Origin: a virus
Lineage: Duplodnaviria; Caudoviricetes
Direction: 5' to 3' (one strand)
DNA: 61,126 nucleotides
Virus record (IMG/VR): IMGVR_UViG_3300025305_000017
Location: 1-61,126 of that record
In this document: piece by piece, positions 18,458-43,200 of the stretch
Position numbering within the stretch: the stretch's first letter is position 1
How the letters are laid out: each line of letters opens with the position of its first letter
Made by a program: the position numbers and the translations under genes
The notes under the pieces: generated by a model
What the model was told of the DNA's origin: nothing
Seen by the model: only the letters and a program-made list of their open reading frames with translations
The model's database searches: none

Positions 18458-21400
18458 CTACCTCCCTAGCTGAAAAGCTTCCTGTCTCATAGCTGGTAGA
18501 TCCTGTACAGCCAGTAACTCATCCTGCGTAATGTCGTCAATCAAAGCCCTCTTTTCCTCACCTGACATGTCGCCTTCCATTATACTCTTTCTCTCCTCCC
18601 TGAGGTCAGCAAGTATCTGAGCAATAGCATTCACCTCTTGCTCCAAATCCAGCAACGCAGCCCTCTTGTCGGCGAACTCCTCACTCTTAACGATGGTAAG
18701 CTCACCTTTTTCCAACATATCATAAGTACCCACCGCCTGCGTCACAGCTTCCCTTAGTTGATAGAACTGTGTCACCAAACCACGGGCATCGGGGCGCGCA
18801 AAGAAGCGCCTGATAAATGGATACTCGGTAAGCTTGCGAGTCTGCGTTTCACCCAGTTCATCATCAACCGAGCGCACCAACTGATCAACCGTATCAAGCA
18901 ATACCGTACCCAGCGTACCGCCGTATCCCTTGATCATGTGATCGATCTTGATCGGAGAGTAATTGATCGCCTCCCCTAACTCACGCGCCAGTCCTGACGT
19001 TCTACTGGCATAACGATACCCCGGCTCAATGCCCTTTAGGTATTGCCCTTCGATCTCACGTCCCGTCCAGAAACTATAGTTAACGAGAGCTTCTCCTAGA
19101 GGAAGAACCGCTTGAGGTATAGGATTAAACTCGAACGTATTAACCAACCCCCTTCTCAGGGATTGCGTCACATCAAGAGGGACATCTTGCCCGAGGAACA
19201 AAGCCATTAACCTCTCAGGTATGGTCTTGAACAGGTATCCAACCTCAAACGGTATGGGTATCTTGATAGGCGGCCCGTCATATCCGGGGATCCACGACGA
19301 TGGAATGATCCAGTAGTTGTCCTTTACCTCGGGGTTTTGATTGATGTATTCCTCATCGTCATGCACCAAAGTCCAGTAAGCTGCACTGCTCATTCCTACC
19401 AGCAATGACCTCATCAGGAAGCGGCGTTTGACAATGTCGGACTCTGGTCGTGCAGCAAAGCCGGGCCTCCCCATAGACGATCTATAAAGCACGTCGAGTC
19501 CCTGTATCCTAGCGTTCAAGAAGGGCACCATGACAGCGATATTCTGAATTAAGGCAGAAGAACCCCTAGCCGAGAAGTTGATAACTTCCTGTGCCTCCCA
19601 GAAAGCCTGCACTTCATCGCCAGTCTCTTTTAATACCCTGTTGTAAACAGCAATTCTGGTAGCAGCATCTGACGCCCGCGAACCTGTGCCGGTTACATCC
19701 CATAAATACTTGAATGGGTTGCGAATAGCCCGCCTCATCTCAGAAGGATACTGATACTTCTGAAGTTCCTTTTCGATAAAGGTGGTCATCTTGGTAGGAT
19801 CGCCACCAAAATCAAACCCTGTCATCAAGCCTGCGGAAGCCAGTGCGTTAGCCGACTCATCCCCACGCACAGCACTGTACATCCCTTTCATGGTGCCAGC
19901 TAATGCACCAGTCTTGCGCCCGCTAGTAACCCATGCAGACAACGAGTCACGCAGCATGTTAGCGGCCATGAAGTCTGGTGATCTGGTGATCATCTCCCTC
20001 AGGAAACGGGCTGGCATACCAAACAGATTAACCCACGGCGGGATCCGCTGATGTTCTAAGTAGTTAAATAGCGATGAAAAAAGCAGTTGGTCTCCCACAA
20101 AGAGAGTCATAGACTTACCTTTGACTCTGAAGGTTATCGCCCCCGGTGTCCTGATCTTGGCCCTCACCGTTGTCTCAGGCTCTACCAAGACAAGGTTACG
20201 CATCGCACGCTGCACCCCGACATTCATCATGCCCGTTTGTACAGCAGCTAAAGCATTCTCGGTTAGGGTATCAAGGAATCCTCCAATGGGCATTCCGCCT
20301 TCTACTACCGACACCTCAAGATTGGGGTGCTCTTGCTTTAGTTTCTTAGCATAACCCTTTGCGACTGCCTTCTGATGAGACTCAAAGGTCGTTGGAAGAC
20401 GGGTTACTATCTCTTCTCCATTAATGGTCTCTTTGGTAACGATAGTCCATATCGTTCCCTTGCCAGAGAGAGGGGGAGGAGGCCGCGTAGTAATGCCGCT
20501 AAATACCTGCGTCTCCCCCAGCACCTCTTCATATTTTTGGTCAAGTTGCCTGTAAAACGGAACGTAATCCGCGGTCTCTGTCCATTGGTCGGCCTTCTTA
20601 CGGTCGATAACCCCTGTGTCTACTAAAAGATCCACGAAGTAGCTGTTCCACACCTGATAGTTCTTAAATATCTGATCGAAATCTAGGAAGGTATCCTGTC
20701 CCGTAGCTATTATCTTTCGCGCAATGGCATCTTCCGTTAAGGCTGGGTCACCGATTATACGTTGGATCTCAAGAGGCGTGTTGCCGTACCCTAGATACTC
20801 GATGATCTGATCCTGCGTTAAGAGCCTCTCCCTACCCTCTCTCAGCAAGCGCGCTGCCCTGCGCCCGATAGCATAGGCATGGAAAGTACGGAACCTATTG
20901 CCCTCACGCAGGGGTTCGATGATGGGTATCAAACCTGTAGGCGTACCAGCAATGGGACTAGGCGACAGAGAGCCATCGATGTTGGTTTGCATTGCATCTT
21001 TGGGAATGTTTTTAACGGATGTACCGCCATTGGCATAAACAGGGACGCCCTTGGAAAGAGCATAGGCAGTTATAGCCGTTCCCCTTCTGGCCGAACGTAA
21101 AGCCGTCCACGCAGACGACGCCGCACTCAGGAAGCTAGCGTACTTTGTATCCGACTCAGCCAAATAAACATCAGTCCGACGCGCAGGATCCCACATATCA
21201 ACAACGCTTTGACGGAACCACTTGAAAAAATCCGTGTAACTATCTAGCGGCGTGCTACCGAGCATACCAAGATTGGTTAAAACCTTGCTTCCAAGAGTCT
21301 CGTCGGTGGTTTGTGCGGCAGAAATCATACTTAAATCAACATCACCAACGCCCTCTTCCTTGTTTAAAAACGAGAAGGCCCGTGCGGCTTGGTAGGGACG

Positions 21401-24400
21401 CTTGTGCTTGTCCTTGCGGGTGTAGCCCTTGCGGCTACGCACCACCCGCTTCCTGTACTTGGGTGTGCGCAAGTCCTCGGCAATGACGTTGCGCTGACGC
21501 TCTTCCTCGAAAGCCTTTTTGCCCGCCTTGTCCTTGATAAAGGAGCGCGCTTCCTTGGAAGAGAAAATCCTACGCTGGATCTCATCCTCAAGCTCCAACG
21601 CATCGATGATGGGGTCTGCCATAGAGGCAGAGATGTTGCGCGTCTCTCCTGCAAAGAGGGCTGAGAGGTTCGCCATCTGCGGGATCGAGTCGATGATGCG
21701 GTCAAGCCTGCTACCCTCATAGCGTGATCCCACAGCAGGGTGACCCCGTACCTCAATGCGGTTGTCGCCGCTTTGTATGGTTAAGGTCGCCCGGTCAGGA
21801 CGTTGGTCGAGAGTGAGGCGCATCCCGTGGCCGCGGAGGCTGTCGTATTGGGTATCGGTTATGTCGTAGAACGGTCGAGCGGCTTTTGCTTTAGCTCCTT
21901 CTGCAACCCCTTTAGCAACTGCGCCCCTAGGTCGAACGCCCGCGCCCGCCCTTTGAGTGACCTGAACTCTTTTAACGAGTTCTTTGATTCTGCTCGCTCT
22001 TTCCGTGAGCGCTTTCTCGTAGTCTCTGACATTGTTTAAGTCCATTCCTTTTCTTACTTGGTTGAAAGCCCATAGGGCAGCTTGTGTTTCTATTGGCGTC
22101 CAACGCAATTCATTAGCCACCTTGGTGATAAGACGTTGCGCCTCTAAAACCATTCCCTCAGTCGGGCTGTCTCTATTGAAAAGCAATTGAGCGATGTGCC
22201 GGTCAACAACCACCGCTTCATCCGCATCGCGCATGGCCTGTATCATGTCGGGTATTTTCTTGCCCGCAAAATAACGCGCTCCGCCGCCCGGTAACTCAGT
22301 AGGTGGCTTACCAGCCCTTTCCCGAAGAGTTCCCTCCCTAGATGGGAGCCTTCCCATGAGACGATTGATGTTATCTACCACCGGATCCAATAAGAGCTTC
22401 GGTGTAGCAGTTTTGCTAAGAATCCCAAGAGGGTCGCCGGTCTTGATAGCTTCATAAACTACCAGCGCCAGATCAATGTTACGATCAATCCGCTTCTGCT
22501 GGCTGGTGATGGATATGATGTCGTTGAAAAGCTGCATGTCATCACCAAATAGCTCATGCAGAATAGGACGATGGCGCTCATACCAGTCTCGATAATTTCT
22601 TGCTGACTTGGCGTCCTTAATAAGCTGAGTAAAGGTGCGCCTAGATGTAGGCGCTCTGGGCTTACGAGGTAAGACAGGGTACTCTCCTAGCTGTACGGCA
22701 CCCGCAACCATGCGCCGTGCTTCCTTAACCTTGTTGGCTTCATCAGCAAGGATGGCGCGCACTTCACCGGGGTCTACACCGGGAGTATCTTCGGTGATCA
22801 CACCGCTCAAGACATCGTTCTCGAATGCCATCTGGCGGATACGCATGTCTACTTGAGAGGGGCGTAGTAGTTCATCTACTGGAGAAGGACGTAGCGGCTC
22901 AAGAATAAACCGTGGAGTTTCAACTGTAGCAAACTCAGTGTCTAGTGATTGTAAATTAGCCAAGAACTTATTAACAGCAGCGGCACTATCAGACGCTACA
23001 TATCCCTTGAAGTTACCGCTGTCCCAGAACTGAGCTACCGTTTCAAAATTATCTACGAGGATATCTTCAGTTGCTTCCTCGGAGATCATGTTCTTGTGCA
23101 TACCCTCCAGCGTTTCTCGGCTCTTCGCGGTCATCTCTTTCACGCTATAATAGCGTGACTTGAACTTATTTTTCTTTGCCTCCTTCTGATCCCACGCTGG
23201 ACGAGCAGCCATCCCGTCCTTCTCGAATACTTTTTCTTCAATGATGACCAAGCCGTTCTTTTTAGCCAGTTCCTTCATGCGTTTGATTTGAGGCTCACGG
23301 TCAGGAGAAATGAATTGGAATACCATAGCCTCATGGACAACATCATATTTTTTAGGGGGCTGGAAGTAGTAGATAGGAGTGCCATCATCCTCTGCCCACG
23401 CGAGAGTTCCTTCCTGCTCGCGTGATCCAAAGGCTTCTAATTTATAGTCAGAACCGGGAACTGGATCTTTCTGAAAAACCTTAGCCATTTCTATATTGGG
23501 ATCAATGCCAGTCGTTTTGATAGCACCCCCAGATAGAGATGTGATGGTTTTAATTAAAGCCCCTTCCGATGCCCCAACATCCAACATGGTGGAACCGTCC
23601 CCGTATGTGTTGACGATAGCCTCTGCCACAGCCAACTGCACTTCCCCAAAACCGGGAATGCTGGTCTTTATGTGATGCTCGAAATTACCCTTCCACTTAT
23701 CATACAGAGCCGGAACGCCAAAGTAATCGGTAAGACCAATGACTGGAATATATGCGTTACCCGTAGAGGGACGATGTTTGACTCCCAGAGTCGCTGCTGT
23801 AAAAAAATCTGTGTAATCCCTACCAGTTCCGGTCATCACCCGCGCCATCTTGGTCACGGCAGGTTTCTTTAGCTCTAGCTTAGGCATCGTTGGAGGAGAT
23901 CCCACCATCGACCGCGCCATCTTTGGCTTCTTTGTGCCCTTGGCAAGGAACGCATTTACTGAAGCTTCTATAGCTTCTGGAGAAAGGTCACCGAACTGAT
24001 ATTCCCCTAGCGCCTCCATCTTTGTCAGCGCCTCTACCTTCCTTTGGGTAGCTTTGGGTAGCACAGGGTGTGCCGTCTCAAGATAATAGAAAGGCCCTGC
24101 CTCTAAAGTGTCGAGAGCGAGACGTTGGAGACCGCCCCTATGTGCGGGCATACCCGGCATCTCCTCGGGAACGACAAGATCGAACCAACCTCTGATGGGA
24201 TGTGTAGATGCAGGATCATTCCACTCGATCCCTATCTTGGTCGGGGAAGCTATCCTCATCTTCTCCCCTTGATCTATGGTTATAGCAGGGTTGTTCCTCG
24301 GAGCGCCTTTCTCACGGTTCCAATAAGCATCCAACAATGCAGCCACACCCTGCGTTGCATTCTTATAGGGAGTGAAGGCAGCAAATTCCTCGTCGTGCTC

Positions 24401-27400
24401 GGAAGCATGGGCGAGACCGAAATCCTGTGGAGTACCCCGTGGCACAAGAACACGATACTCGTTGCCAGCTACACGCACCCTCCCCCATACGATGGTGGGG
24501 TTGCCAGCAATGTCGCGTCTGGTTTCCAGAGCAAACGCAGAGGCCGGTAAATTGGCGTAGCGGCGGGATTGTTTGACCTTACGCTCCCGTATGGCATCGG
24601 CTAATCTTTGTGCATTACGATTTTCAGCGTTAAACGCTTCCTCATCTATCCGAAAAGCAACTAGTTTCACATCATCAGGGTAAGTATCAAGAGCTACGTT
24701 AGCCCTCTCAACATCTTCAGAGGGTCCGCGTGGAGTAGTGGGGGTTTCGACAATCAATTCTCTCTTTGTTGGCGACCTCTCCACCGCAAACTTTACATCA
24801 TCCTGTTGAATATCTATTGGAGGCCCTAATTCAGCACGATCTTTAGCAATGCCAATGTCATCGAAGGGCACATACCAGCCACTAATGGGTGCAGATAGAT
24901 CAGCGTTAGGAGCGTCAGGAGTACCAAGAAGAGTTCCTAAATCTTCCCGTAACAATCTTGAGTAAACTCGATATGCATCACCCAAGGGATTTTCAAGATA
25001 TCCTTCTGATGGAATCGTCAGAGCCTCAAGGGTTCTCAGGTTTTGAATAGTAGGATCATTATCCCACTCCCCAATGATGAAATTTAATTCATTCTCCTCA
25101 TGTAGCTCTATCCCGGGGAGGCTAACAAAGTCCTGCTTTCTCCAAAATTTATCTAACGCAGTCTCAATGGGTTCTGGCTGGAAAAGAAGATCAGTTTGCG
25201 GGGTGCCCTGCAACCTGACGCGCGGGTTGCCATCATCATCCAACTCACGAACTGGTCTTTTGAGAAGGAGGTCGTCTAATTCATTAAATTGCGTAGACAG
25301 TCCCTCCCAATTAGGAGCGTAAACCTCGAATATTTCACTCCCATCATCCGCAAGCTCCGCGTGAATATAGCCAGTGTTCTCCCCCATAGAAGGTGGCAGC
25401 TTAACCTGCCCATTACTTACATGCCTAACCAGTTGAGCCATACCCTCGTGCGATATAACATAAGCGTCCCACACATAAAGCTCGCCCTTGTTATCGTAAG
25501 CAAAACGTAACTCGGCTCTCTTTCCCACACGCCCAACCAGTCCTTCAGCATGATCTCTCCTGTACTTTTGCGCCATCCTTGTTATCACATGTCGAGAGGG
25601 ATTAATCCTTACCTCCTCAACCTCAGGCTCATAAGTACTGTGAGCGAAAGCTGCCGCTACTTCCTCACCAGTAAACCTTCTGCCGCGTGACCTCCCTACT
25701 TTCTCCTTATCTATGGCACTCATCTCCTCGTCGATAAGAGGATCCCCGATCATGGTGTCTTCGATAGGAAGAAGCCCTATTTTCTGAGGCGCAAAGGGGC
25801 GCTCTTCAATAGGCAGTGAGTCTGCCCGTTTGGCTGGGTCAATGCCGAGACGGTGGAAATTGAACCAAGCGTTGTTTCCCAGTGTCTCAGTAGCCAAAGC
25901 CCAGCGCGCCCACGGACTAGCCATCATACGCGCATGATTAACGTAGGCTGCCTTTCCCCCGAACTTACCCAACGAAAGAGGTGACATGGTGTGAGCGTAG
26001 TAGTCATGCACAGCCCGTAGCACATCATTGTACAACAAGAACGTGCCGTTCATATCGACACGCCCGCTCTGTTTTATGAGGGGATGGTTGGAAGAGAAGT
26101 CACTTTCGTCAGTCTTGAGGATATAGAGATGATTGTTGTTCATAACATCATCTCTCATGGCTGCGCTGTTAGCGTATGGCTCCCCCTCTCCCTCGAACAC
26201 CTCTACCTTGACAGGCAGGGCGTCGAACTGACTAATCGACTCTCGCTGAAGTTCCGTATAGGCTCTTTTAACAGCAGGATTCCCGCTGTCATCATCCGGC
26301 ATAGCGTCGTAGTTGTCGGCTATCCTCTCAAAGGATGTTCTTTCTTCTGGAGTGAGGGTGGTTTGTGGGACGGCAGTGGCAAAGGGCAGCCCACGCAGGA
26401 ATTGAGCTATTCGGTGACTGGTTCTGTTTCCTTCGTGGTACGCCGGGAGACGAAGTGTGCCTGATATCTCTTGATACCCGTTTGTGGCGGCAAATCCACT
26501 ACCGTAAGCCCAGAATCTTCTAATGCTTCTGTTAGCTCGTGATATGCTTTTTCCAAGGGATTGGCGGGCGCGGTTGGCTTGTTGTTGGAACTCTTGGATG
26601 GCGGCTGTGTCATTAGGATCTCCCCAGTAGTATGCCTCTAAATATGTATCAGTTACCGTTAGGCCGGGCAAGCCTGATGACTTAATGACCTCATCGATCT
26701 TTGCCCGCGATAATGGTTTAGGCAAAAGATAGCGAACTGCAATAGTGTTATACGACCCATCTGGATGAACGAACCCGGGAATGTTATTGTTGGGGTCACC
26801 ATCCAAAACGTGGAGTTGTTCTTGATTGAAGTTGGTGGAGAACTGCTTGAGGGCAACCAGCGTATCCTGCCTGTCCGGTTCAGCAAAGCCCACCAGCAAT
26901 CCAACTGATGGCTCACCCTCTCCCGCATAAACCCCCTGCGAGGGGAGTATCTGGAAAGTAGCTGTGGGAATACCGCTCAACAAGTAGGTCAGGGCATCAG
27001 TGGCAATGTCCTGCAACAGGTGAATGGCGTCTTGATTGCCCGTTTGGGCCTGCTCCTGTAAAGCAGCAAGGCCGGGGATCTCAGCATTAACGACCGACAG
27101 GTTGGAAGCTATCTGATTGACAGGGACATCGTCTATGCTCTTGACCTCGCTGCGGTCGAGAACGTCCTGATCCCAAATAACGTAGTTATAAGTACGACTA
27201 TCGCGTAACTCTATCGACCCCGGGTCCGCTGACCATTCTTCTAAAGTCTCTTTTAAATCGCGAGCATCTCTGAGTGTAGATCTTAGATTTTGGGTATAGC
27301 GTCTATTTGCCGCTCTTCCTTTAGGACCAAAAGCAGGTTCTGTCGCTAGAGCAAGAGACGTTTGCAACCGTTCCACCGAAGCCGTGGCCTGCTCTAGCGC

Positions 27401-30400
27401 AAGATCAACATCCCCTGCGGTAGCACGCACAGCACGAGATGCTGCGAGATAGCCTAAATGGTACGGATTGTTTTCATCTATCTCTTCGCCATTATAAAAA
27501 ACACCGATTGGTTTATCCCGACTCAACTGATCCCAATATCTAAGACCCGGAACACCTTCGTCAGCCAACGCCAAAGAAAGAACCTTCTTGGCCTCTCCCC
27601 GCTCTATGCCTTGTTTCTTCTCAATCGCCTCAGTAAGCGCGCGATAAATACCATTAACGGTTCTCTTGGGGTCCAACTGGTATGGTATGTACTTCTGAGG
27701 CACTCCGCTTACCACATTGGTCAGAGCCTCCTGCACTTCTGGAGATTGCTTGTCGAATGCCAGATCAGCATCCATAAACAGCGCCATGTCGGCATCTGGA
27801 ACGTCTATTTCATAGAGGGTAGGCGCGTCTATGGCTGCCCTGACATCTGTACCAGCAGCAATCCATTGATCTATTAGTTGGAGTGCCTCAGAAGTAACTG
27901 CATCCGCTGCTGGTCCGATTTGATATACAAGCGAGTCTAACGATCCGCTTAAATAATCTCTCGCCAACTTTAATAACCGCTGTGGATCAGCACCTAGAGC
28001 TTTCTCTTCTTGTGGATTTCGATAACTACCAAAGAGATCGTTAAGCGCTGCTATTTTATGGCCCCGTTCATGGCTCACAATACCGGAGCTAAGGTCCACA
28101 GCACTGGGCCTAAGGTCTCCAGTCTCCCACCTACCCCGTAGAGATGGATGAGGAAGCGACCTACGCCCCCCTGCATACTCAAGAACCATTTGCAGAATGT
28201 AATTAGCATACGTTAATGGAGAAACCAGTTCCTCTAATGACGGCATTTCCGAGGCAGGCACCACGGGATAACGTCCCCCAACAGGTCTGAGGGGGTTGGG
28301 AAGAACGCCGCCTATTGCACCTTTGTATTCATCACCAAGATGTTGGAGACCCGGCTCTTCCCACGTTTTTTGAGGAACACCATCTATAACAATCTCCCTG
28401 ACAGCATCCTGATTCCTCCACTCCTGCGCACGATCAGCCCTATAAGCCGCACCCGTATCCCGCACCTGCCCCGCATAATAACCCCACCCCTCCATAGTGG
28501 TGTCCTCTCCAGTACCCTGAAAAGCCAGATCTGGCTTGCCGAACACCCGATCCAAAGCCTTACCCCACGGCACGGGACTACCGCTGAACGCGCGCGCCTC
28601 TTTAACCCCCTCCTGCTTTTCCTTCTCAAGCTTCTTACTTAGACTTTCCTCCAGTTCCTCTGGGAAGTCCTCTGTTCGCGCCCCAGTCGGAATAAAGCCA
28701 GCAGGAGTGGGATCAATGATGCGATCAAACACTTGCGCGGCGTTGTAGATTTTGGCGTCAGCAAGACCCCCCTTCAAATTCCTGAAGAAATTGAGGATAC
28801 GCTGCCATATTGTCAGGGGGCGGCCCTTGAGAAAGTTCTGCCCGCTGGCGTGTCCCCTGAACAACTCGGCAGCCACCTCTTCAAGCTGCTCCGTCTCAGA
28901 GAGATCGGAGTAAGTCTCGCGCACCACCTCCATGACGCTCTTAACGGAGCCATCGTCTCTAAGCTGCCCCGTCCAATGAGGAACTTCATTGGCCGCTTCT
29001 GTTAAAGCTTTTATATCGGCAGCATCCAATGTCTTCATATCGACCAGCGCATGGATGGTCTCGTGGTCAAGCAGACCAGCCATGTAACGAGCCATCCATT
29101 TGGGATTCTTGAGAGTGGCTGGAGGTAAGCCATCAAGAGCAATCAAGATCGCTCGCTTAACAGCGGCCTCTTGAGGAATAAATATCGCCTCGTCCCCAAC
29201 CTTCTGACCATATATGCCAGCAATGGTATCGGTAATTATCAGTGGTACCTTGTCTCCTAGATTAGAATACGAGCCAAAGCGACGTAGCAGGTTCTTGCGT
29301 ATCTGACTGAGGATGGCGGGGGTGATATCGGGCTTGATGGTGGCAGTCCGAACAGTATCGGTAAGAGTGGAGATATCTGGAATAATCTGCTTCTCGGCAG
29401 GACCGATGTCCACATGCACAGGATCAATAGCCGACGTAATGATCTCTTTGGTCTCTTCCAGAATAGCCGGTGCCTCTCCACCCACGTCTTCATCGACAGG
29501 ACTGATACCCGGCAGGGCAGCAGGCGGCGTTGCGTCAATGGTTTCTTCTATGATGGGGGGTTCGGGGAGGCGGGTAGTCGGGATAGCTGCCGCAGTCTCA
29601 TCCAGAATAGGAGGCTGTGGAATAGGCTCAAGAGGTATCGCTTCAGCCGTTTCTTCAAGGATCGCGGGCGGCGCGAGCGGCGGCCCCTCTTCTGCTACCG
29701 TTTCAAATTCTTCGGGGAGTCCTTCAGTGGGGTCGGGTGGGGGTACTGGATCCGGTGTGGGGCGAGCAAAGGGGCCACCCACGCTACCAACAAACCCACC
29801 AGTAAGGCCACCAATAGCAATGGCATTAGCAATATTCTCCACCCGCTGTGCCAACTGGATGTCTTCCGGGGAAGCGCCCGTAGCCTCGGTGTATTCACCC
29901 GTCGTCTCCTGAATGATCTGCTGCGCACCTTCGGTAAGCGCCTCTACAGTGAGGCCCTTCTTGCCGAACTGGAGCATCCGCTTGGCAACTGAGTGTGCGA
30001 TTTTTTCTTTGGTTTTTTTCCTGAAGGGAGCAGTGAGGGCAGAGAGACCGGCCATATCCAAAGCGGCCATCGCCACACCCGGACCCAAAGCTATGCTAGC
30101 CGCCGTGTCAGGATCTACCTTTTCCTGCTCAACCAGATAATCATAAGTATCGCCATAGTTCTGGAGGAAAGATCCCGTACCAGCCCCAACACGCATCCCT
30201 ACCCCTACGCCGATAGGGCCACCGGGTGCCCCTGCTATCCCACCAGCAACAGCACCAGCCAATGGCACACCTAAGGAAGCAACGCCTTGCCCTAATCCTT
30301 GACCGACGTAATCCAGAAAAGTATCAAGGTCTTTGATTTGAGTGAGGGAGGGGACGCGAGCAACAAAAGCTTCTTTATCAGGCTCTGCTTCAAAGTCACT

Positions 30401-30667
30401 GACGATCTCAGAACCCCAGTCAGTGACTGTATCTGAGCCAAAGAAACGACCCAGCCCTTCGATGGCGCGCCCAGCCAAACGTGGGTTCTCTTGGGTAAGA
30501 GTGCCCCAAAATGAGCCAGCGAATTGTTCACCAAACCCCGATTCGCTAGGCTGAGGAGGGGGAGCTTCGTAGGGGAATTGTTGATTGATGTACGCTAGAG
30601 CTTCATCTTGCGTAGCGTCATCAGGAAACGAGAACTGCTGCCCTTCAAATTCATAAAGCTGTGCCAT
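18458..30667 (-). CDS. Giant polyvalent virion/ejection protein (4069 aa) with C-terminal LPD38-like region
   Basis: HETIH zincin motif, ART-like, PBECR-like, SAM-dependent and glycosylase-like segments; C-terminal IKIPIPFEVG..FKTIPER and SPIKIDH..KGY.G motifs; last gene of the ejection module. Confidence 0.85.
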   Translation of the reverse strand: MAQLYEFEGQQFSFPDDATQDEALAYINQQFPYEAPPPQPSESGFGEQFAGSFWGTLTQENPRLAGRAIEGLGRFFGSDTVTDWGSEIVSDFEAEPDKEAFVARVPSLTQIKDLDTFLDYVGQGLGQGVASLGVPLAGAVAGGIAGAPGGPIGVGVGMRVGAGTGSFLQNYGDTYDYLVEQEKVDPDTAASIALGPGVAMAALDMAGLSALTAPFRKKTKEKIAHSVAKRMLQFGKKGLTVEALTEGAQQIIQETTGEYTEATGASPEDIQLAQRVENIANAIAIGGLTGGFVGSVGGPFARPTPDPVPPPDPTEGLPEEFETVAEEGPPLAPPAILEETAEAIPLEPIPQPPILDETAAAIPTTRLPEPPIIEETIDATPPAALPGISPVDEDVGGEAPAILEETKEIITSAIDPVHVDIGPAEKQIIPDISTLTDTVRTATIKPDITPAILSQIRKNLLRRFGSYSNLGDKVPLIITDTIAGIYGQKVGDEAIFIPQEAAVKRAILIALDGLPPATLKNPKWMARYMAGLLDHETIHALVDMKTLDAADIKALTEAANEVPHWTGQLRDDGSVKSVMEVVRETYSDLSETEQLEEVAAELFRGHASGQNFLKGRPLTIWQRILNFFRNLKGGLADAKIYNAAQVFDRIIDPTPAGFIPTGARTEDFPEELEESLSKKLEKEKQEGVKEARAFSGSPVPWGKALDRVFGKPDLAFQGTGEDTTMEGWGYYAGQVRDTGAAYRADRAQEWRNQDAVREIVIDGVPQKTWEEPGLQHLGDEYKGAIGGVLPNPLRPVGGRYPVVPASEMPSLEELVSPLTYANYILQMVLEYAGGRRSLPHPSLRGRWETGDLRPSAVDLSSGIVSHERGHKIAALNDLFGSYRNPQEEKALGADPQRLLKLARDYLSGSLDSLVYQIGPAADAVTSEALQLIDQWIAAGTDVRAAIDAPTLYEIDVPDADMALFMDADLAFDKQSPEVQEALTNVVSGVPQKYIPYQLDPKRTVNGIYRALTEAIEKKQGIERGEAKKVLSLALADEGVPGLRYWDQLSRDKPIGVFYNGEEIDENNPYHLGYLAASRAVRATAGDVDLALEQATASVERLQTSLALATEPAFGPKGRAANRRYTQNLRSTLRDARDLKETLEEWSADPGSIELRDSRTYNYVIWDQDVLDRSEVKSIDDVPVNQIASNLSVVNAEIPGLAALQEQAQTGNQDAIHLLQDIATDALTYLLSGIPTATFQILPSQGVYAGEGEPSVGLLVGFAEPDRQDTLVALKQFSTNFNQEQLHVLDGDPNNNIPGFVHPDGSYNTIAVRYLLPKPLSRAKIDEVIKSSGLPGLTVTDTYLEAYYWGDPNDTAAIQEFQQQANRARQSLGKSISRANRSIRRFWAYGSGFAATNGYQEISGTLRLPAYHEGNRTSHRIAQFLRGLPFATAVPQTTLTPEERTSFERIADNYDAMPDDDSGNPAVKRAYTELQRESISQFDALPVKVEVFEGEGEPYANSAAMRDDVMNNNHLYILKTDESDFSSNHPLIKQSGRVDMNGTFLLYNDVLRAVHDYYAHTMSPLSLGKFGGKAAYVNHARMMASPWARWALATETLGNNAWFNFHRLGIDPAKRADSLPIEERPFAPQKIGLLPIEDTMIGDPLIDEEMSAIDKEKVGRSRGRRFTGEEVAAAFAHSTYEPEVEEVRINPSRHVITRMAQKYRRDHAEGLVGRVGKRAELRFAYDNKGELYVWDAYVISHEGMAQLVRHVSNGQVKLPPSMGENTGYIHAELADDGSEIFEVYAPNWEGLSTQFNELDDLLLKRPVRELDDDGNPRVRLQGTPQTDLLFQPEPIETALDKFWRKQDFVSLPGIELHEENELNFIIGEWDNDPTIQNLRTLEALTIPSEGYLENPLGDAYRVYSRLLREDLGTLLGTPDAPNADLSAPISGWYVPFDDIGIAKDRAELGPPIDIQQDDVKFAVERSPTKRELIVETPTTPRGPSEDVERANVALDTYPDDVKLVAFRIDEEAFNAENRNAQRLADAIRERKVKQSRRYANLPASAFALETRRDIAGNPTIVWGRVRVAGNEYRVLVPRGTPQDFGLAHASEHDEEFAAFTPYKNATQGVAALLDAYWNREKGAPRNNPAITIDQGEKMRIASPTKIGIEWNDPASTHPIRGWFDLVVPEEMPGMPAHRGGLQRLALDTLEAGPFYYLETAHPVLPKATQRKVEALTKMEALGEYQFGDLSPEAIEASVNAFLAKGTKKPKMARSMVGSPPTMPKLELKKPAVTKMARVMTGTGRDYTDFFTAATLGVKHRPSTGNAYIPVIGLTDYFGVPALYDKWKGNFEHHIKTSIPGFGEVQLAVAEAIVNTYGDGSTMLDVGASEGALIKTITSLSGGAIKTTGIDPNIEMAKVFQKDPVPGSDYKLEAFGSREQEGTLAWAEDDGTPIYYFQPPKKYDVVHEAMVFQFISPDREPQIKRMKELAKKNGLVIIEEKVFEKDGMAARPAWDQKEAKKNKFKSRYYSVKEMTAKSRETLEGMHKNMISEEATEDILVDNFETVAQFWDSGNFKGYVASDSAAAVNKFLANLQSLDTEFATVETPRFILEPLRPSPVDELLRPSQVDMRIRQMAFENDVLSGVITEDTPGVDPGEVRAILADEANKVKEARRMVAGAVQLGEYPVLPRKPRAPTSRRTFTQLIKDAKSARNYRDWYERHRPILHELFGDDMQLFNDIISITSQQKRIDRNIDLALVVYEAIKTGDPLGILSKTATPKLLLDPVVDNINRLMGRLPSREGTLRERAGKPPTELPGGGARYFAGKKIPDMIQAMRDADEAVVVDRHIAQLLFNRDSPTEGMVLEAQRLITKVANELRWTPIETQAALWAFNQVRKGMDLNNVRDYEKALTERASRIKELVKRVQVTQRAGAGVRPRGAVAKGVAEGAKAKAARPFYDITDTQYDSLRGHGMRLTLDQRPDRATLTIQSGDNRIEVRGHPAVGSRYEGSRLDRIIDSIPQMANLSALFAGETRNISASMADPIIDALELEDEIQRRIFSSKEARSFIKDKAGKKAFEEERQRNVIAEDLRTPKYRKRVVRSRKGYTRKDKHKRPYQAARAFSFLNKEEGVGDVDLSMISAAQTTDETLGSKVLTNLGMLGSTPLDSYTDFFKWFRQSVVDMWDPARRTDVYLAESDTKYASFLSAASSAWTALRSARRGTAITAYALSKGVPVYANGGTSVKNIPKDAMQTNIDGSLSPSPIAGTPTGLIPIIEPLREGNRFRTFHAYAIGRRAARLLREGRERLLTQDQIIEYLGYGNTPLEIQRIIGDPALTEDAIARKIIATGQDTFLDFDQIFKNYQVWNSYFVDLLVDTGVIDRKKADQWTETADYVPFYRQLDQKYEEVLGETQVFSGITTRPPPPLSGKGTIWTIVTKETINGEEIVTRLPTTFESHQKAVAKGYAKKLKQEHPNLEVSVVEGGMPIGGFLDTLTENALAAVQTGMMNVGVQRAMRNLVLVEPETTVRAKIRTPGAITFRVKGKSMTLFVGDQLLFSSLFNYLEHQRIPPWVNLFGMPARFLREMITRSPDFMAANMLRDSLSAWVTSGRKTGALAGTMKGMYSAVRGDESANALASAGLMTGFDFGGDPTKMTTFIEKELQKYQYPSEMRRAIRNPFKYLWDVTGTGSRASDAATRIAVYNRVLKETGDEVQAFWEAQEVINFSARGSSALIQNIAVMVPFLNARIQGLDVLYRSSMGRPGFAARPESDIVKRRFLMRSLLVGMSSAAYWTLVHDDEEYINQNPEVKDNYWIIPSSWIPGYDGPPIKIPIPFEVGYLFKTIPERLMALFLGQDVPLDVTQSLRRGLVNTFEFNPIPQAVLPLGEALVNYSFWTGREIEGQYLKGIEPGYRYASRTSGLARELGEAINYSPIKIDHMIKGYGGTLGTVLLDTVDQLVRSVDDELGETQTRKLTEYPFIRRFFARPDARGLVTQFYQLREAVTQAVGTYDMLEKGELTIVKSEEFADKRAALLDLEQEVNAIAQILADLREERKSIMEGDMSGEEKRALIDDITQDELLAVQDLPAMRQEAFQLGR

Positions 30668-30684
30668 TCAGCAACTCATCACAT

Positions 30685-33159
30685 CTAGAATGGATAGACT
30701 TGTCGTGGCGCGGCAACAATGTCGCCACTGTTAGGATCACGAATAGTCGTGTGAACACCTGCTGCCGTCTGTGGAGCGACACCAGTAGCCGCTCTGATTT
30801 GTTCTAGTTCCTTTTTATATTCCTTTAATAGCTCTTTCTTCACCTTATCAGGATCATCTCCATACAGATCCTTTAGCCTACGTTCAACCCGTTTTCCTGC
30901 GAGGCTCCGTACCCACTGATGATAAGTTTGAAGGGAAGCCTTTGATGCAGCATAAGGAGATTGAGCACTGCCAGCGCCCCAAGCCTTTCTTATTGCTTCT
31001 CTTGCCCCGGGGAGGGGGTTACCGGGTTTACCATCGACATCCTCAAACCACCTTTTCCAATGAGGACTTTCCTTGTGGCTTGCTAATATATCTTCTTCAA
31101 ATCTCTGATAGGCGTCTGGTTTTCTCTTAAGAGCCGCCGCCTGTAATTCCAATGTAGCCCGTGCCAAGTCCTCTTTAGCACCCGCCGCTCTGGAGGCAGC
31201 TAATCCCTTCATGCCCTCCAAGCCACCTCGTCCCAATGAACCAAGGGCAGTTGCTCCGGGCAGTTGCGCTGCCGCCGCCGTCCCAAATCCAGCGCGCGCT
31301 AAAAATTCCCATAGATTCTGTTGGTCTCTTTCTTTTTGGCCCGCCAAGAGAGCACTCGCAGCAGAGGGTATTCCCGCAGCATCATCAACAGTAGCGTCAT
31401 CAAGTGCACCCGGCTTCCCAGCAGCCATATTCCTGAGAGCACCCTGCCTCCAACTTCCCGGCCCCCCGAAAGCAACGGTCCTCGCATAAGCTTCACCCAT
31501 ATCAGGAGGAGCAAAACCCGGCGGAGTAGATGCCGCTACTAACGGCCTCTCACTCTGACTCAGAGCTAACTGCAAGTTAGGTGGATCAGGAATAGGATCA
31601 GCAATTTTATAACCCCCGACAAAGGGCAATCCCCCAACTTTCTCAGCATAAATCCTCTTAAATGCTTCTTTATCCGCAGCACGTTGCTGCTCCATGTTTT
31701 TTCTGTATATCACATCGTTAATCGGGGCTGCTTCAGAAAAACGACCAGTCTGAATACCTGCAAGCTCTGGGACTAGAGGCTGTACTGTTGATGGCGGAGC
31801 ATCAGGCGAACCAGAAAGCACAGTCTCTTCCTTGAAGCGTTCAGGAACCGGCAGCCCAAGCCGCCCCACTAACCGCCTACCCGCGCCCCCTAAATCAATT
31901 GCGCCTTGTAGCACTTTTTCACCTATGCCACCCGCCTGACCTATGCTTGTGCCAGATGCTGCTACCTGTGGCAGTCCACCTGTAGCTCCAGTTGTAGCTC
32001 CAGACATGAACTGCGGCGGAAGCCATGTCCCAGATAAGGGAACTGCTTCCTCAATTCGATTTAACCAATCCACGGCCATCAGCGTTTCATCAGGTGACAC
32101 AATAGGTTGTTCAGCAAGCTGTACTGGAGGCTGTGCTGTAGGCACCGCAGAAATAGCAGCCTCTTCTTCTGTTAGCGGTTTATCCCCGGCAGTAAAGAAA
32201 ACATTCCCGCCAATATCCACCTTATCAGGTGTCAAGGGCGTTGTGAGGTTGCCTTGAGAATCATAGAAATCTTTAAGACTCTTGCTAATAGTCCCTCGTT
32301 TGGCAGTTAAGGTGGGGTTCTCAAAATTGAGCGAGCCACCAACAGGATTCGCCGCATTGAACGACCGCCCATCAAAGAGCGCCCCCGACACGAAGTATCT
32401 CGTCCAGCCGCTTGCTGGTAAAAGCTTGTCTACATCATGTCCTGCCTTCCCCACTGGCTCAAATTGTTGTTTTGCTTCAAGAACTTCCTTAACACTATCC
32501 CCCCATTTGCCATCTCTGAGACGATTTATAATTACTGCCGTTACTGCAAATATGCCCTTTACATCATCCCCAGTTTCCTGATCAACAACCCTCGCAATTC
32601 TGTCTTTATCTTCATCAGTTAGGCTCTCAATCACCTCCTCAATAGACTTAACCCTACCTCCCTTAGCCATCCTCACAACACCACCTTGCTCCATCATCAT
32701 GGGGGGAACAGCCTGACGGGCCATTGGTGGAGGCACTGCTCTGGCAAGAGCCTGCATCTGAGGAGGAACACCCGGTGACATCTGCCGTTGGGGTAGCGCC
32801 CTGATACCCTGCTGGGCTTGCGGGGGCATACGTCCCTGCATCATCTGAGGAGGAGGCCCCTGCATCATTTGAGGTGGAGGACGGCCCTGCATCATCTGAG
32901 GTGGACGGCCCTGCATCATAGCCTGCGGCCCCATTAGAGGACGGGGCTGCTGTGGTGATGCGCCACTAATAACATCATCAGCAACCGTAGTCTCCGCTTC
33001 CTCTACATCAGCCCTATAGGCGTCTTCCATACGCTTACGGCGATCCAACTCACTAATGATTAAATATGTATCAACAGCCCCGGGGTTCTGTACTTGCTGT
33101 AGCAAAACTTCCTTAGAAAGACCCTTCAGAATCTCTGTTATCTGTAAGATATTGGTCAT
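30685..33159 (-). CDS. Ejection protein with SleB/Hydrolase_2 cell-wall hydrolase domain
   Basis: IARVV..E....G..AV.AVI.NRL..G.W..SV..V....QFE; P/Q/M-rich repeat; start reassigned to ATG 33159 (MTNILQ). Confidence 0.75.
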   Translation of the reverse strand: MTNILQITEILKGLSKEVLLQQVQNPGAVDTYLIISELDRRKRMEDAYRADVEEAETTVADDVISGASPQQPRPLMGPQAMMQGRPPQMMQGRPPPQMMQGPPPQMMQGRMPPQAQQGIRALPQRQMSPGVPPQMQALARAVPPPMARQAVPPMMMEQGGVVRMAKGGRVKSIEEVIESLTDEDKDRIARVVDQETGDDVKGIFAVTAVIINRLRDGKWGDSVKEVLEAKQQFEPVGKAGHDVDKLLPASGWTRYFVSGALFDGRSFNAANPVGGSLNFENPTLTAKRGTISKSLKDFYDSQGNLTTPLTPDKVDIGGNVFFTAGDKPLTEEEAAISAVPTAQPPVQLAEQPIVSPDETLMAVDWLNRIEEAVPLSGTWLPPQFMSGATTGATGGLPQVAASGTSIGQAGGIGEKVLQGAIDLGGAGRRLVGRLGLPVPERFKEETVLSGSPDAPPSTVQPLVPELAGIQTGRFSEAAPINDVIYRKNMEQQRAADKEAFKRIYAEKVGGLPFVGGYKIADPIPDPPNLQLALSQSERPLVAASTPPGFAPPDMGEAYARTVAFGGPGSWRQGALRNMAAGKPGALDDATVDDAAGIPSAASALLAGQKERDQQNLWEFLARAGFGTAAAAQLPGATALGSLGRGGLEGMKGLAASRAAGAKEDLARATLELQAAALKRKPDAYQRFEEDILASHKESPHWKRWFEDVDGKPGNPLPGAREAIRKAWGAGSAQSPYAASKASLQTYHQWVRSLAGKRVERRLKDLYGDDPDKVKKELLKEYKKELEQIRAATGVAPQTAAGVHTTIRDPNSGDIVAAPRQVYPF

Positions 33160-33163
33160 AGCG

Positions 33164-34246
33164 CTATCCAGTAAGGGTTTTGTAAGCACCAAGAGCACCA
33201 AGGCCAGCACCAGCCAACTGACCCGTAAATGATCCCGGTGCTTGGTATTGGTAAACCTCGGACTGAGGTGTAACGGGCACTCCCTGTAATAGGCCAGCCA
33301 AGAACTGAAGCTGCCTACGCTCAAAGTCCCGCTGATTAAGGAAGTCCTGATAGGCCAAATCAAGGTTGGCCTGATCCATTTTCTGATAAGCAGCCCCCAC
33401 TCCCTGCAACGCCCCAGCTTGAGAAAGCTGTTGCTGTAATATTTGAGGGTCCATTCCAGCGGCGGCAGCCGCAGCCTGTAATCCATACTGCGCCTCCTGC
33501 AACCTCTCTGCTCCCCCAAGTTGAGCAGCCTGTACGCGAGCAGCACGATCCCGCTGGAACTGATCCATTGCCTGCTGTTGAGCTAAACGAAATCCCTCCG
33601 AGCGTTGACGGCTTTCAAGATCGCCCATACGCTCCTCGAATTGACCGCGTGCCAATGATTCTTCCACGGCAGCACGGCTTCCCGTGCGCGTTCCACGCCC
33701 CACACGGGCAGCTTCCCTTTGCTGGGCCTGTAACCCAAACTGCGTTTCAGCACTCCTCCGCTGCCCACCAAGAACATCCTCCAAATAGGGATCAAAATAG
33801 TCCTTATAATCATAAGATGGCCTGTATTCCCCTATAAGCCCGCTGTAGCCCTGTGCTTGAAATGGGCGTGGTCCGAACCCGGCAGCAGGAGAAGGCCCCT
33901 CAGCACCCCCTACAGGAGCCTGAGGAGGCGCCCCCACCTCACCAGCAGGGGGTGGGGGAGCATACGGACGGTTAAGAATATTGGAGTAATAGTCCTGCGC
34001 AGCGTACATTCCCTGAGGAGCGGTTGCGCCTGCCTGTGTCTGCAACCCAAATCCTAGGCTCTGCTCCGGTGCAAATGGGGCAATGCGTGGTCCCGGGTAA
34101 CCCAAATAGGGCTGATCGGTAACCGTTTCGCCTCGCGTTAAAAGACGCTCGTAGTAAGGCTGTGCGTATTCGGGAAGACTAGTCTGTGTAACCGTGCTCT
34201 TAGTGGGCGTAGGGTTGACACCCCCGCCACCTCCACCTTTACTCAT
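33164..34246 (-). CDS. DNA transfer/pilot (ejection) protein
   Basis: MSKGGGG start, LPEYAQPY, Gln/Ala-rich, Gly-rich hydrophobic C-terminus. Confidence 0.65.
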   Translation of the reverse strand: MSKGGGGGGVNPTPTKSTVTQTSLPEYAQPYYERLLTRGETVTDQPYLGYPGPRIAPFAPEQSLGFGLQTQAGATAPQGMYAAQDYYSNILNRPYAPPPPAGEVGAPPQAPVGGAEGPSPAAGFGPRPFQAQGYSGLIGEYRPSYDYKDYFDPYLEDVLGGQRRSAETQFGLQAQQREAARVGRGTRTGSRAAVEESLARGQFEERMGDLESRQRSEGFRLAQQQAMDQFQRDRAARVQAAQLGGAERLQEAQYGLQAAAAAAGMDPQILQQQLSQAGALQGVGAAYQKMDQANLDLAYQDFLNQRDFERRQLQFLAGLLQGVPVTPQSEVYQYQAPGSFTGQLAGAGLGALGAYKTLTG

Positions 34247-40216: not shown

Positions 40217-43200
40217 CTACCTCGCTCTTGCCTGTGCAACTCCTGAACCTCCAAACGGATTTTCCGCAAAGGCAATGTAGATATAATCAGCAGTGTCTGT
40301 ATTTTGGAATGTACTGCGGAGTTTGAATCCATTTGCTAAGAAATCCTGCGTTGCACCTGTATTTGTTCCATCAGTATCATCAACAACTAAAAAATCATCA
40401 AGTGGGTTAAATGGATCTCTCTTATTATCTACTAAGGTATAACTACCAACAGCACTAAACTTTTTCTGAAACAAATAACTAGGACGAAACCCCGTACAGA
40501 CAAACGGACCGTCCGCATCACCATTACCGACATAGCTTCCGAAAGAGGAATATCCTTCAACGGGAAACCACGCATAGAAGACATATTCTTCAACTAAATT
40601 AACAGCATTATTATTTAAATTTTTTGCAAGAGTTATCGTTGTTGAAGATACTGCACTTATATACCCAGCATTTGGAGTTACTTCGGCACCATTATGATCT
40701 ATTTGCAGGATCTTATTAGCGGATAATGAAGTATGCCAAAGAGTCCACGAACTAGACCTCTCAAGAGGTTTCACTATAACCAATTCAGGGGTAACCCCAA
40801 GTCCGTGACCTATCGTAGAAGAGACAGCGGCATTATCACCTGTATAAGTACCCATCGAAAATCCGGCAGCGGTATTTGCCCTGATCGTAGTCGTAATGGC
40901 ACCATCCCCGTTACTGGTTTCCGCACCATCATTCGCCCATTGCCACAGAACATAACTTTCGGCAGACGTATTAACTGCATCCATGTTTCCTATCTGTACA
41001 CCCTGCTGAAGGAATCGTTGTACAGAATTAGTATCGGTATCTTGACCGTCAGTAGTATTACTTTCTACATAATTATAAATTCCAGTTACCCTCGTCTGAA
41101 GGATATGATTATCAGTAGCATCCCGGTTCTTGATCCAAGAGAAGCCGGTGATGCCAGCGGTGTTGGCTGGTAGGTTGTCCTGTTGGAAAGCTAAAAAATC
41201 TGTTGGTGGTGTATATCTGAAATACCCACCGGCAGTAGCATCTAGTGTCGTTGTCGCCCCATCGAAATAACGCCACTGACCGAAATTAAAAGTACAGGTA
41301 TGACTAGCATTAAAAAGCAACTCTATAGCCCATTTCGATATATTCGGACCTCCGAATATTCCCGTTATGGCAGGGTTTGTGCCAGCACTAGGATCACCGC
41401 TACCCATCCACGTATCATTTTTTGCAAACCACATATGTCCCGCATCTAAATCCATTGCGATTTGAAACACATCTCCAGATACATAACCCGTTCCGAAAGT
41501 TGTAAAGTCACCCCTCACATTTTTTTGCCCTGTAGACCCTGATGTAGTACCACCAGCACTATCATAATTTCTGTATCCAAATGCATTTTCGCCATAAATA
41601 CTATTATCCGCAATTAGATTGTTAAGATCAATAATTCCAAATGCCATTGTATTAGCGCCAACCACCATCGTATCTATTCCAATTTCAACATACCATTTTC
41701 CGGTAGAAGCACCCATAAAAGCAGGGCCAGAAGGATTACCCGATGATTGCGTATATGTTAAGTTTCCCTGCGTTAATCCCGCTGCTAGAGGTTGTATCCA
41801 TGATATGCCGGTACTATCCCAACCACCATCCATTACATTAAAGTTCTGTGACGGCGTGTCGTACATCTGGTTGCTGCCGTTGGTGCTGTCCAGATTAGTT
41901 TCGGCCCAATCATTACCTTCACCGGAGGTATCATCACCTAAATTATTTTCAGAAGCATAGGCAAGGTAAGTGCCGTTGGTTCCAAAGGTTAGACCTGAAA
42001 CATCCTTTGGTATCCAACGACCTGTTGAAGTATCAGTCTCACCAAAGCTGGAAGCAGCGTAAGCCGTTCCATCAATAAAAACAGTTTCAGCTAAATATCC
42101 ATCATAGGGTATATCCCCCGCTGGTTCTCGTTGACCTATTCCGTGTTCAACATTGGTTTGTACGCCACCCTCAAAATTTAATGCTGGATTCGTATCCGTT
42201 GAAAAATTGGTAAGTTCCACCCCATCATAATATATCCGAACTCTGTCACCTGCTGTGGCATCGGTAGTATCCCATGTCAGCACGATATTGTGCCATGAAC
42301 TTGTATCTAAAAATAATCGGTCTGTGGCGAGATAAGTAGTACCTCCAGCATTAAATTGAAGTGTATTAGCACTTCCAAATATAAGAACACCAGAATTAGC
42401 TGTGGTTGCACCAGAAGCTGGTTGTGTCCCAAATATGTGTCCGTTAACATCAACTTTCCCTCGTTTTACCCAAGTTGAGAACGTCCACGTTTTTCTATCA
42501 CTAGCATCAAAGGTCCGGCTTAAAAAATCACTGTCACCACTATCAAACCTACAAGAAGCACCAACAGCAAACGTATCGGTGAAGGGTATGAAGTTACCTA
42601 CACGCTGACCAGCGCCGTTGCCTTCATAGAGTATGGGGAGGAACTGATCTGTGGGTTTGGTTATGGTTGGGGCTGCAAGGTTAGCCGTGCATATAGGAAG
42701 ATGGTCTGTAGCTGGAGTATCGTCAAACCCAAATTGTCCGGCGTTAATATTCGATATTGTAGTGCCATTATTAGTAAAATAGAGAGTGTACGGCCCGGTG
42801 GCTAATGTCATGCCAGAATCAGTGAATATATTTGAACCATCGAAAGATCCTGCAATAGTTCCGTTATCAAGATCTATATCCACCGCCACCCGCTGTCCAG
42901 CAGTTACTACCGTCAAACTGCCACTTTGCTCTACACCTCCCAACTGCGTCATTCCATCACCTGAAGAAGGCTTCATGAACCAGTTCCAGTAGCCACTAGC
43001 ACTTGGATTGAAGGTACTGAGAGTGGGTGTTAGTCCAAGTCTATGATGACCACTACCACCAAGAGTTGTCATAACAAATTCTATGTGCCATTTCCCAGTA
43101 AGTATAGGTGTTGTAGTAAGCGGTATAAAAACATCGCCACTGGCTATAGCTATTACTACTTTAGTATTCCCCTCACTCCAAGTCACTTCAGAAGCATAAC

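Follow-up and report, generated by a model that had tools for sequence, protein, structure and literature searches.

The window analysed here is the whole of IMG/VR record IMGVR_UViG_3300025305_000017, a Caudoviricetes genome of 61,126 bases with a GC content of 52.5%, rated 100% complete by CheckV. On its minus strand, one open reading frame (ORF) encodes a giant protein of 4069 amino acids, and a segment of this protein (22985-23690) is, judged from its sequence, a true but distant homologue of CmoA, the bacterial enzyme that makes carboxy-S-adenosylmethionine (Cx-SAM) from S-adenosylmethionine (SAM) and prephenate. The diverged active-site signature of the segment argues against orthodox Cx-SAM synthesis and for a different reaction on a small substrate. 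Our preferred reading, held with modest confidence, is that the module is a CmoA-derived SAM enzyme acting on a small substrate with a changed chemistry, the canonical conversion of SAM and prephenate into Cx-SAM being less likely.

Read on the plus strand, positions 22985-23690 give a frame full of stops. The CmoA-like feature is on the minus strand, within the single ORF 18458-30667, of which it forms residues 2326-2561. A protein identical to the product of this ORF is already on record, with 22 member sequences. The features needed for the argument are the following.

18458-30667, minus strand: giant ORF (4069 amino acids) for a phage-type polyvalent protein carrying the CmoA-like module; a single open frame with an LPD38 domain and several PHROG matches.

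22925-23770, minus strand: CmoA-like SAM-binding module as modelled (amino acids 2300-2581), supported by AlphaFold2, VIA-align, hhalign and phrog_4752.

About 22979-23692, minus strand: core of the module as aligned by structure comparison (amino acids 2326-2563).

23561-23584, minus strand: motif I, LDVGASEG (amino acids 2362-2369), with the SAM-binding residues D2363, G2365 and S2367 and the family-specific invariant E2368; it aligns with D62-G64-S66 of Escherichia coli CmoA.

23309-23332, minus strand: post-beta4 motif HEAMVFQF (amino acids 2445-2452, running on to I2453), with the family-invariant E2446 and a Q-F pair common with CmoA.

23117-23125, minus strand: lid-helix triplet K2515-S2516-R2517, aligned to K198-R199-S200 of CmoA.

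A first-pass annotation, made from the sequence alone, had described seven ordered motifs in this segment and had drawn a parallel between each of them and CmoA. All seven are present on the minus strand between 22994 and 23683 (amino acids 2329-2340, 2362-2369, 2387-2394, 2449-2453, 2472-2479, 2502-2521 and 2547-2558). The parallels were reproduced by aligning a 45-sequence alignment of the family with eight CmoAs using hhalign, with a probability of 99.4% and an E-value of 7.9e-22 over 236 columns. The CmoAs in this comparison came from E. coli, Synechococcus phage S-B43, a Staphylococcus SPbeta-like phage, and the Erwinia, PaBG, Alcaligenes, SM1 and Gordonia Evaa phages. Every motif pairing was recovered, the sole gap being of one residue within the FKSRYY...ETLE stretch, an agreement that greatly exceeds what chance would produce. 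The HEAMVFQF motif aligns with LNFTLQF of CmoA in this comparison, and with the His-His of BelI in the profile search of the PDB.

With the single sequence as query, Pfam returned generic families only (Methyltransf_12, 23, 31, 11 and 25), all under their cut-offs, with LPD38 as the one addition when the whole protein was searched, and phmmer found no match in the PDB (best E-value 0.79). Among NCBIfam models the best match was TIGR00740, the CmoA model, at 27.7 bits, which does not reach its equivalog cut-off of 193.3; the second was CpaM (NF043040; E-value 7.5e-6), a family of no established function, at 25.5 bits for a cut-off of 180. Searching the genome with TIGR00740 gave two sub-threshold matches. 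Profiles were more discriminating. A profile of 11 sequences ranked the three solved CmoAs first in the PDB, with E-values of 2.5e-7 to 1.3e-5, the next match being at 0.19. With 45 sequences the CmoAs again led (1im8 at 6.7e-11, 4gek at 6.2e-9 and 4iwn at 6.6e-9), followed by BelI at 1.2e-3 and CysG at 7e-3 to 1.7e-2, and the best match outside these families was at 0.23. The CmoA family phrog_4752, which E. coli CmoA (from NC_000913.3) also matches at 1.4e-101, is the only PHROG matched by the segment (E-value 9.5e-19). In the ESM Atlas, the segment retrieved generic methyltransferase clusters, with a 'tRNA (Cmo5U34)-methyltransferase' only at rank 11, which did not decide the matter. The PDB profile, phrog_4752 and hhalign thus bear out the proposal that the segment is specifically CmoA-like and not a generic methyltransferase. 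Scored with the family hidden Markov model (HMM), S-B43 CmoA reached 57.9 bits, the SPbeta-like protein 51.8, Evaa 41.4 and E. coli CmoA 39.8. These scores put the module nearest to phage CmoAs of the His type, of which the Synechococcus phage S-B43 enzyme is an example.

The module was modelled with AlphaFold2 from the 11-sequence alignment (mean predicted local distance difference test score, pLDDT, 90.7; predicted template modelling score, pTM, 0.91). The model has the features expected of a CmoA, namely a class I SAM-binding fold, N-terminal helices and a closed lid, which are common to CysG, BelI and MM_2633. These same proteins led the Foldseek search, with E-values of 7e-12 to 8e-11 for CysG/BelI, 2.6e-11 to 1.2e-10 for CmoA and 3.8e-11 for MM_2633; 8k5l came next at 1.0e-8 and every other methyltransferase was at 1.4e-8 or worse. 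With VIA-align, the leading structures aligned over 205-212 residues at a root mean square deviation (rmsd) of 2.2-2.6, CysG, BelI and MM_2633 having Z scores of 21.3-21.8 and CmoA of 20.6-20.9. More precisely, CysG/BelI (9fcl, 9fce) reached Z 21.3-21.8 over 205-209 residues (rmsd 2.2-2.4) and MM_2633 of Methanosarcina mazei (3dtn), a protein with no assigned function tied for the top, Z 21.8 over 208 residues (rmsd 2.3). For the CmoAs the values were Z 20.9 for 4iwn (210 residues, rmsd 2.5), 20.9 for 1im8 (208 residues, rmsd 2.4) and 20.6-20.7 for 4gek (211-212 residues, rmsd 2.6). After these leaders came 8k5l at Z 18.4 and Coq5 at 17.0. A scan of 48,161 representative chains gave the same picture: MM_2633 (21.8), BelI (21.3) and CmoA (20.6) formed the top three, 8k5l followed at 18.4 and all others were at 17.0 or below. 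The best matches are therefore not unrelated methyltransferases: CmoA is within 1.2 Z of the best, and the top group stands about 4 Z above the ordinary ones. The Z scores being nearly tied, the fold assigns the module to this small group of structures as a whole and not to CmoA in particular.

The members of this group with a known activity are lid-closed enzymes of small molecules, CmoA on the one hand and CysG/BelI, which act on alkylmalates (PMC11408123), on the other. This bears on whether the module could be a conventional methyltransferase of macromolecules, acting on transfer RNA (tRNA) or ribosomal RNA, on a host or virion protein, or on the incoming DNA. The CmoA lid is described as blocking the RNA-binding region used by TrmA and RumA (PMC3663124), and our model aligns with the CmoA structures over 208-212 residues including the lid, which counts against an RNA substrate. 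The module is also unrelated to the DarB-type adenine methylase of polyvalent proteins, in which a DNA adenine methylase resembling EcoKI/TaqI is joined to a helicase (PMC5512222). On the other side, polyvalent proteins are predicted to modify both proteins and nucleic acids (PMC5512222). The invariant residues of the family, described below, are of use to this explanation too: in N- and O-methyltransferases, invariant Glu and His often serve in catalysis or substrate binding. All in all, we hold a macromolecular substrate to be distinctly unlikely; a database label that speaks for it is considered with the family below.

CysG and BelI were described as Ca2+-dependent carboxyl O-methyltransferases of beta-lactone biosynthesis with a His-His-Asp metal motif (PMC11408123). 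The module is without this motif, the His-His of BelI aligning with the Q-F pair in a weak stretch of the alignment. In the PDB profile alignment BelI lacks the S, Q-F and E-K of the signature common to CmoA and the module, and by sequence CysG/BelI are weaker matches than CmoA (1.2e-3 to 1.7e-2 versus 6.7e-11).

Conservation was counted by column over 208 family domains aligned to the family HMM. The SAM-contacting residues of CmoA are Tyr39, Asp62, Gly64, Ser66, Asp89 and Asn132 (PMC3663124). Four of the six are identical in the module (D2363, G2365, S2367 and D2389) and 96-98% conserved in its relatives; the Tyr39 column holds Phe in the window protein and Phe or Tyr in the relatives, and the Asn132 column holds Ala. 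Within motif I, the Asp occurs in 200 relatives, the Ser in 202 and the Glu (E2368) in 205; within HEAMVFQF, E2446 occurs in 206, the Gln in all 208 and the Phe in 100%. In segment numbering, where E69, E147, E197 and K200 correspond to E2368, E2446, E2496 and K2499, the residues kept among those invariant in the eight CmoAs are F30, S37, D64, G66, S68, G70, F153, G173, K180 and K216. The family further keeps Q152, R158, E179, K204 and N253 of CmoA, and F254 is also common with the CmoAs.

Four residues set the family apart. E69, E147, E197 and K200 are 99-100% conserved in it and occur in none of the eight CmoAs, where their columns hold Leu, Thr, Arg or Ser or are variable. In CmoA, the SAM methyl group is described as surrounded by a hydrophobic pocket (PMC10491745). 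In total, about 20 polar residues are at least 90% conserved among the 208 relatives, which are overall about 40-50% identical; they include E2496, K2499, K2503 and N2552 outside the SAM site, and H2332 is the only His conserved to this extent. Such a pattern is typical of an active enzyme. This speaks against a module that is catalytically dead or non-enzymatic, either a binder of SAM or of a SAM-derived signal or a purely structural domain of an internal virion protein. Sponge-like counter-defence proteins are known in phages, and we identified neither an acceptor nor a partner for the module, which are the points in favour of such a role; we nevertheless rate it as very improbable. The family-invariant residues suggest instead, as far as such patterns can be read, a cationic or metal-bound substrate.

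In CmoA, the carboxylate of bound Cx-SAM is contacted by Arg199 alone, a residue conserved in CmoAs and not in ordinary methyltransferases (PMC3663124, PMC4482062). The Arg of the CmoA QKRS motif had been noted as shifted by one residue in the segment, and we observed the same: K198-R199 pairs with K2515-S2516 in every alignment and the Arg, R2517, comes one residue on, opposite S200. The Lys2515 column holds Lys in 200 of the 208 relatives. The column aligned to R199 (column 217) is much more variable, with Ala in 60, Arg in 40, Lys in 30, Ser and Gln in 21 each and Asp in 15; column 218 holds Lys in 63, Ala in 45, Glu in 42, Gln in 22 and Arg in 13. At the alternative position four residues on, Arg is almost absent (column 221, 1 of 208; column 222, none); these columns are hydrophobic or acidic, and the window protein has L2520/E2521 there. 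Because Arg is seen at any of the four candidate columns in only 49 of 208 relatives (78 have neither Arg nor Lys there), the clamp arginine is, by this count, not a conserved feature of the module family.

The clamp itself is not fixed among CmoAs. S-B43 CmoA has a Glu at the R199 column and an Arg four residues on, and all 80 of its 80 close relatives from viral contigs share the shifted Arg, every one reading K-E-x-x-L-R. The S-B43 enzyme was reported to be highly active (PMC12783734), so the lack of R199 is by itself insufficient to dismiss Cx-SAM synthesis. On these alignments the clamp can sit one helical turn away from the Arg199 position. We also observed that the clamp Arg of CmoAs seems to swap between two sites, being at 199 in E. 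coli, Erwinia, PaBG and Alcaligenes (with Glu at 203) and at 203 in S-B43, the SPbeta-like phage and Evaa. The CmoAs of the latter three have a His at the column of E. coli Met31, and that of Pseudomonas phage SM1 has no Arg at 199 or at 203.

The shifted clamp of an active phage CmoA is the reason why we keep some weight on a genuine, divergent Cx-SAM synthase, unlikely as we think it. Delivered with the DNA, such an enzyme would convert SAM and prephenate into Cx-SAM at entry, draining or replacing the SAM needed by defences, or feeding a carboxymethyltransferase. In three independent libraries no characterised family comes closer than CmoA, nearly all residues invariant in the eight CmoAs are retained, and among the CmoAs scored the family profile does best on the validated one of S-B43. 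With this enzyme the module shares the His at the Met31 column and a Lys at the K74 column, and S-B43-type enzymes are likewise without R199. Whether CmoA-mediated SAM depletion affects defences is a question asked in PMC12783734. Against this, the family has no conserved Arg at the 199- or the 203-equivalent column (40, 1 and 0 of 208 at columns 217, 221 and 222), and its three invariant Glu fall where CmoAs have Leu, Ser, Thr or no fixed residue; the pocket near the SAM methyl of CmoA is, as noted, described as hydrophobic. The TIGR00740 score is moreover far under the cut-off, and the stem leading to the family is very long (see below).

The genomic context points the same way. Phage CmoA is described as supplying Cx-SAM for DNA carboxymethylation in a CmoA-CmoX pathway (PMC12783734). 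Consistent with that pathway, stand-alone phage cmoA adjoins cytosine methyltransferase genes in S-B43, the SPbeta-like phage and PaBG. Unlike these, the complete 61-kb phage studied here gave no match to CmoB (TIGR00452) and none to a CmoX-type C5-methyltransferase (PF00145). Among five other large phage records with the module, PF00145 was found in one, which has a full-length C5 cytosine methyltransferase at 41585-42685 (E-value 2.4e-52). We thus rejected a link to CmoX, and likewise a link to the pathway of the wobble modification uridine 5-oxyacetic acid (cmo5U), for which a host CmoB is possible. Few copies would be injected, in the face of a SAM pool that apparently amounts to 180 uM in E. 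coli, and the in vitro activity of CmoA was called relatively low (PMC4482062); on quantity, bulk SAM depletion by canonical CmoA chemistry was therefore judged unlikely. Two functional suggestions of the first-pass annotation fare less well in this comparison. Cx-SAM synthesis gains no support from it, the clamp arginine not being conserved, the invariant Glu being foreign to CmoAs and no Cx-SAM-using partner being found in the phage. An altered wobble modification has no backing in a phage without a CmoB or C5-methyltransferase match.

Taken as a whole, the module shows homology to CmoA (E. coli b1870, Haemophilus influenzae YecO 1im8, TIGR00740, phrog_4752, S-B43) over its full length and has the same fold with N-terminal helices and lid. 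The two have in common the S-x-x-P, G-x-S-x-G, Q-F, E-K and lid Lys signature and most SAM-binding residues. They differ by an identity of only about 18-20%, by the gained invariant residues E2368, E2446, E2496 and K2499 together with the non-conserved clamp Arg, and by an extra hairpin inserted between beta3 and beta4 of the module that CmoA is without. Finally, the module is embedded in a giant protein, whereas CmoA stands alone beside a cmoB or C5-methyltransferase gene.

To place the family, a maximum likelihood tree was built from 31 modules (that of the window and 30 drawn at random from the remaining 207) and the eight CmoAs, unrooted and with no outgroup. The modules all grouped in a single clade (support 100/100), with short branches inside it and a stem 5.5 changes per site long; several of the CmoA branches were long. 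Such a tree of sequences shows the separation and cannot show whether the family arose within phage CmoAs.

A word-indexed search limited to proteins of 2237-7121 amino acids recovered 121 giant carriers. Counted by hand among the matches listed, LPD38 occurs in 34 of 120 carriers, and many carry ART-PolyVal, DUF7178, InPase, RadC or GGDEF domains. An exhaustive HMMER search gave 505 representative clusters (50% identity) at an E-value of 1e-3 or below, 252 of them at 1e-30 or below, and among the best 150 of the 505 clusters, 16 are shorter than 1000 amino acids. Twenty short proteins of 246-481 amino acids carry the module with the family invariants kept, some of them on contigs of 9-50 kb; therefore solo forms exist. 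When 14 flanking segments of the window protein were compared with 209 carriers, each matched between 0 and 20 of them, on either side of the module and at varying distances. Thus, the module moves independently of its flanks, and a fixed partner domain beside it was rejected, no flanking segment being constant across the 209 carriers. As one example of such a flank, the stretch at 25862-26335 on the minus strand (amino acids 1445-1602) matches phrog_3170, of unknown function, at 6e-12; the segment bearing it (amino acids 1500-1800) recurs in 19 of the 209 carriers, before or after the CmoA-like module. Of three relatives scanned, two have ART-PolyVal immediately after the module. These two matches are weak (amino acids 1057-1118 in one and 2097-2147 in the other) and begin about 10-110 residues after the module; many other carriers list PF18760, and Pfam found no ART-PolyVal in the window protein. 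From these distributions, the module family is a separate and tightly conserved one, encountered almost only in giant phage polyvalent proteins as a freely shuffled module.

Among 50,697 GenBank phage records, the module was found in one, that of Maribacter phage Panino, a podovirus (PP540027.1, 28228-33717). The carrier, a protein of 1829 amino acids encoded at the end of the structural genes and adjoining an array of 15 tRNAs, is labelled 'tRNA methyltransferase', which would favour the macromolecular substrate discussed above. This label is probably misleading: it was in all likelihood taken over from the PHROG for CmoA, an enzyme for which tRNA is not a substrate (PMC4482062). The main text of the Panino paper makes no mention of a methyltransferase.

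Beyond the module, the giant protein and its neighbours comprise the following features.

18815-19357, minus strand: LPD38 domain (amino acids 3771-3951), Pfam PF18857, E-value 1.9e-32, 113.3 bits for a cut-off of 27.

29780-30475, minus strand: N-terminal region (amino acids 65-296), matching phrog_6958 'virion structural protein' at 8.9e-19.

30685-33546, minus strand: upstream neighbour, a protein of 953 amino acids with a lysozyme/endolysin-like stretch, from a PHROG match.

33164-34246, minus strand: upstream neighbour, a DNA-ejection-protein homologue, from a PHROG match.

LPD38 marks polyvalent proteins of the phage type (Iyer et al. 2017, PMC5512222). The giant protein is large and multidomain, and besides LPD38 it has distinct PHROG matches along its 4069 amino acids: two families of unknown function at amino acids 3546-4048 and a weak DarB-like match at amino acids 217-329, in addition to those given above. 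Its gene is located among genes for the virion and DNA delivery. Upstream on the same strand are the genes for the large terminase, the portal, tail-fibre-like proteins, the DNA-ejection-protein homologue and the 953-residue lysozyme-like protein, and downstream is an endolysin gene; the replication genes (primase/helicase, exonuclease, Sak-like annealing protein and HNH endonuclease) are on the opposite strand. The PHROG matches in the ejection-protein block (30685-34246, minus strand) are phrog_15649 at 3.6e-7 and phrog_4287 at 2.1e-7. The two ORFs of this block share 383 bases, and the 953-residue gene probably has its true start at some point downstream of the first GTG.

Two HExxH motifs were also noticed in the N-terminal third of the giant protein, HETIH at 29051-29065 (amino acids 535-539) and HERGH at 28058-28072 (amino acids 866-870), both on the minus strand. 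They could belong to a zincin-like processing peptidase as described for polyvalent proteins; Pfam reported no zincin-type peptidase domain at these motifs at an E-value of 1 or below.

The protein resembles the polyvalent proteins of Iyer et al. (2017) in its giant size, its LPD38, its position in a structural and ejection block, the shuffling of modules between relatives and the weak DarB-like match. In the main text of that study, our searches turned up the DarB-type adenine methylase as the only methylase and no CmoA-type module, although the supplementary domain lists may have it (PMC5512222). A search of the literature on CmoA together with polyvalent proteins found nothing related. Polyvalent proteins are proposed to be injected along with the DNA (PMC5512222), and from gene order and domain content the giant protein probably travels in the virion. 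The description of the module as virion cargo, made in the first-pass annotation, thus holds for the polyvalent hallmarks (LPD38, a virion-structural-like N-terminus, a gene placed after the ejection genes); the packaging itself we infer.

In our preferred reading of a CmoA-derived enzyme with altered chemistry, virions would contain the giant protein and deliver it into the cell together with the DNA. The module would then bind host SAM and catalyse a reaction on a small, lid-enclosed substrate. This reaction would most likely be a transfer from SAM to an acceptor that is bound or deprotonated by H2332, E2368, E2446, E2496 and K2499. Several observations weigh against such a reading. In the predicted model the fold alone is not CmoA-specific, CysG/BelI/MM_2633 and CmoA being within about 1 Z of each other. 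The presence of the protein in virions is deduced from gene order and domain content. The active S-B43 CmoA is without an Arg at the R199 column, so that the clamp arginine is not universal among Cx-SAM synthases. Finally, the register near K2515-R2517 is not certain, an Arg being present at +1, because a one-residue gap is needed nearby in the hhalign alignment.

A more specific proposal, which we put forward as a doubtful one, is that the module is a phage-specific CmoA offshoot turned into an injected effector, whose novel SAM-dependent reaction would disarm SAM-dependent defences before phage genes are expressed. Within seconds after the DNA has entered, such a reaction may, for example, alkylate a cationic metabolite of the host, or turn SAM, or an immune signal derived from it, into an analogue that is inactive or inhibitory.

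These results correct a likely mis-annotation, the 'tRNA methyltransferase' of Panino, and indicate that the arginine regarded as 'defining' for CmoA, Arg199, is displaced by one helical turn in a phage enzyme that is active. They point to a second recruitment of the CmoA scaffold by phages, as a conserved module of giant and probably virion-delivered polyvalent proteins that is found in at least 505 clusters at 50% identity. The module is small and confidently folded in the prediction. Phage-encoded CmoA for DNA carboxymethylation was shown only recently, in work that raised and left unanswered the question of an effect on SAM-dependent defences (PMC12783734). Should the module act at the very start of infection, it would be a candidate for a new kind of metabolic counter-defence.

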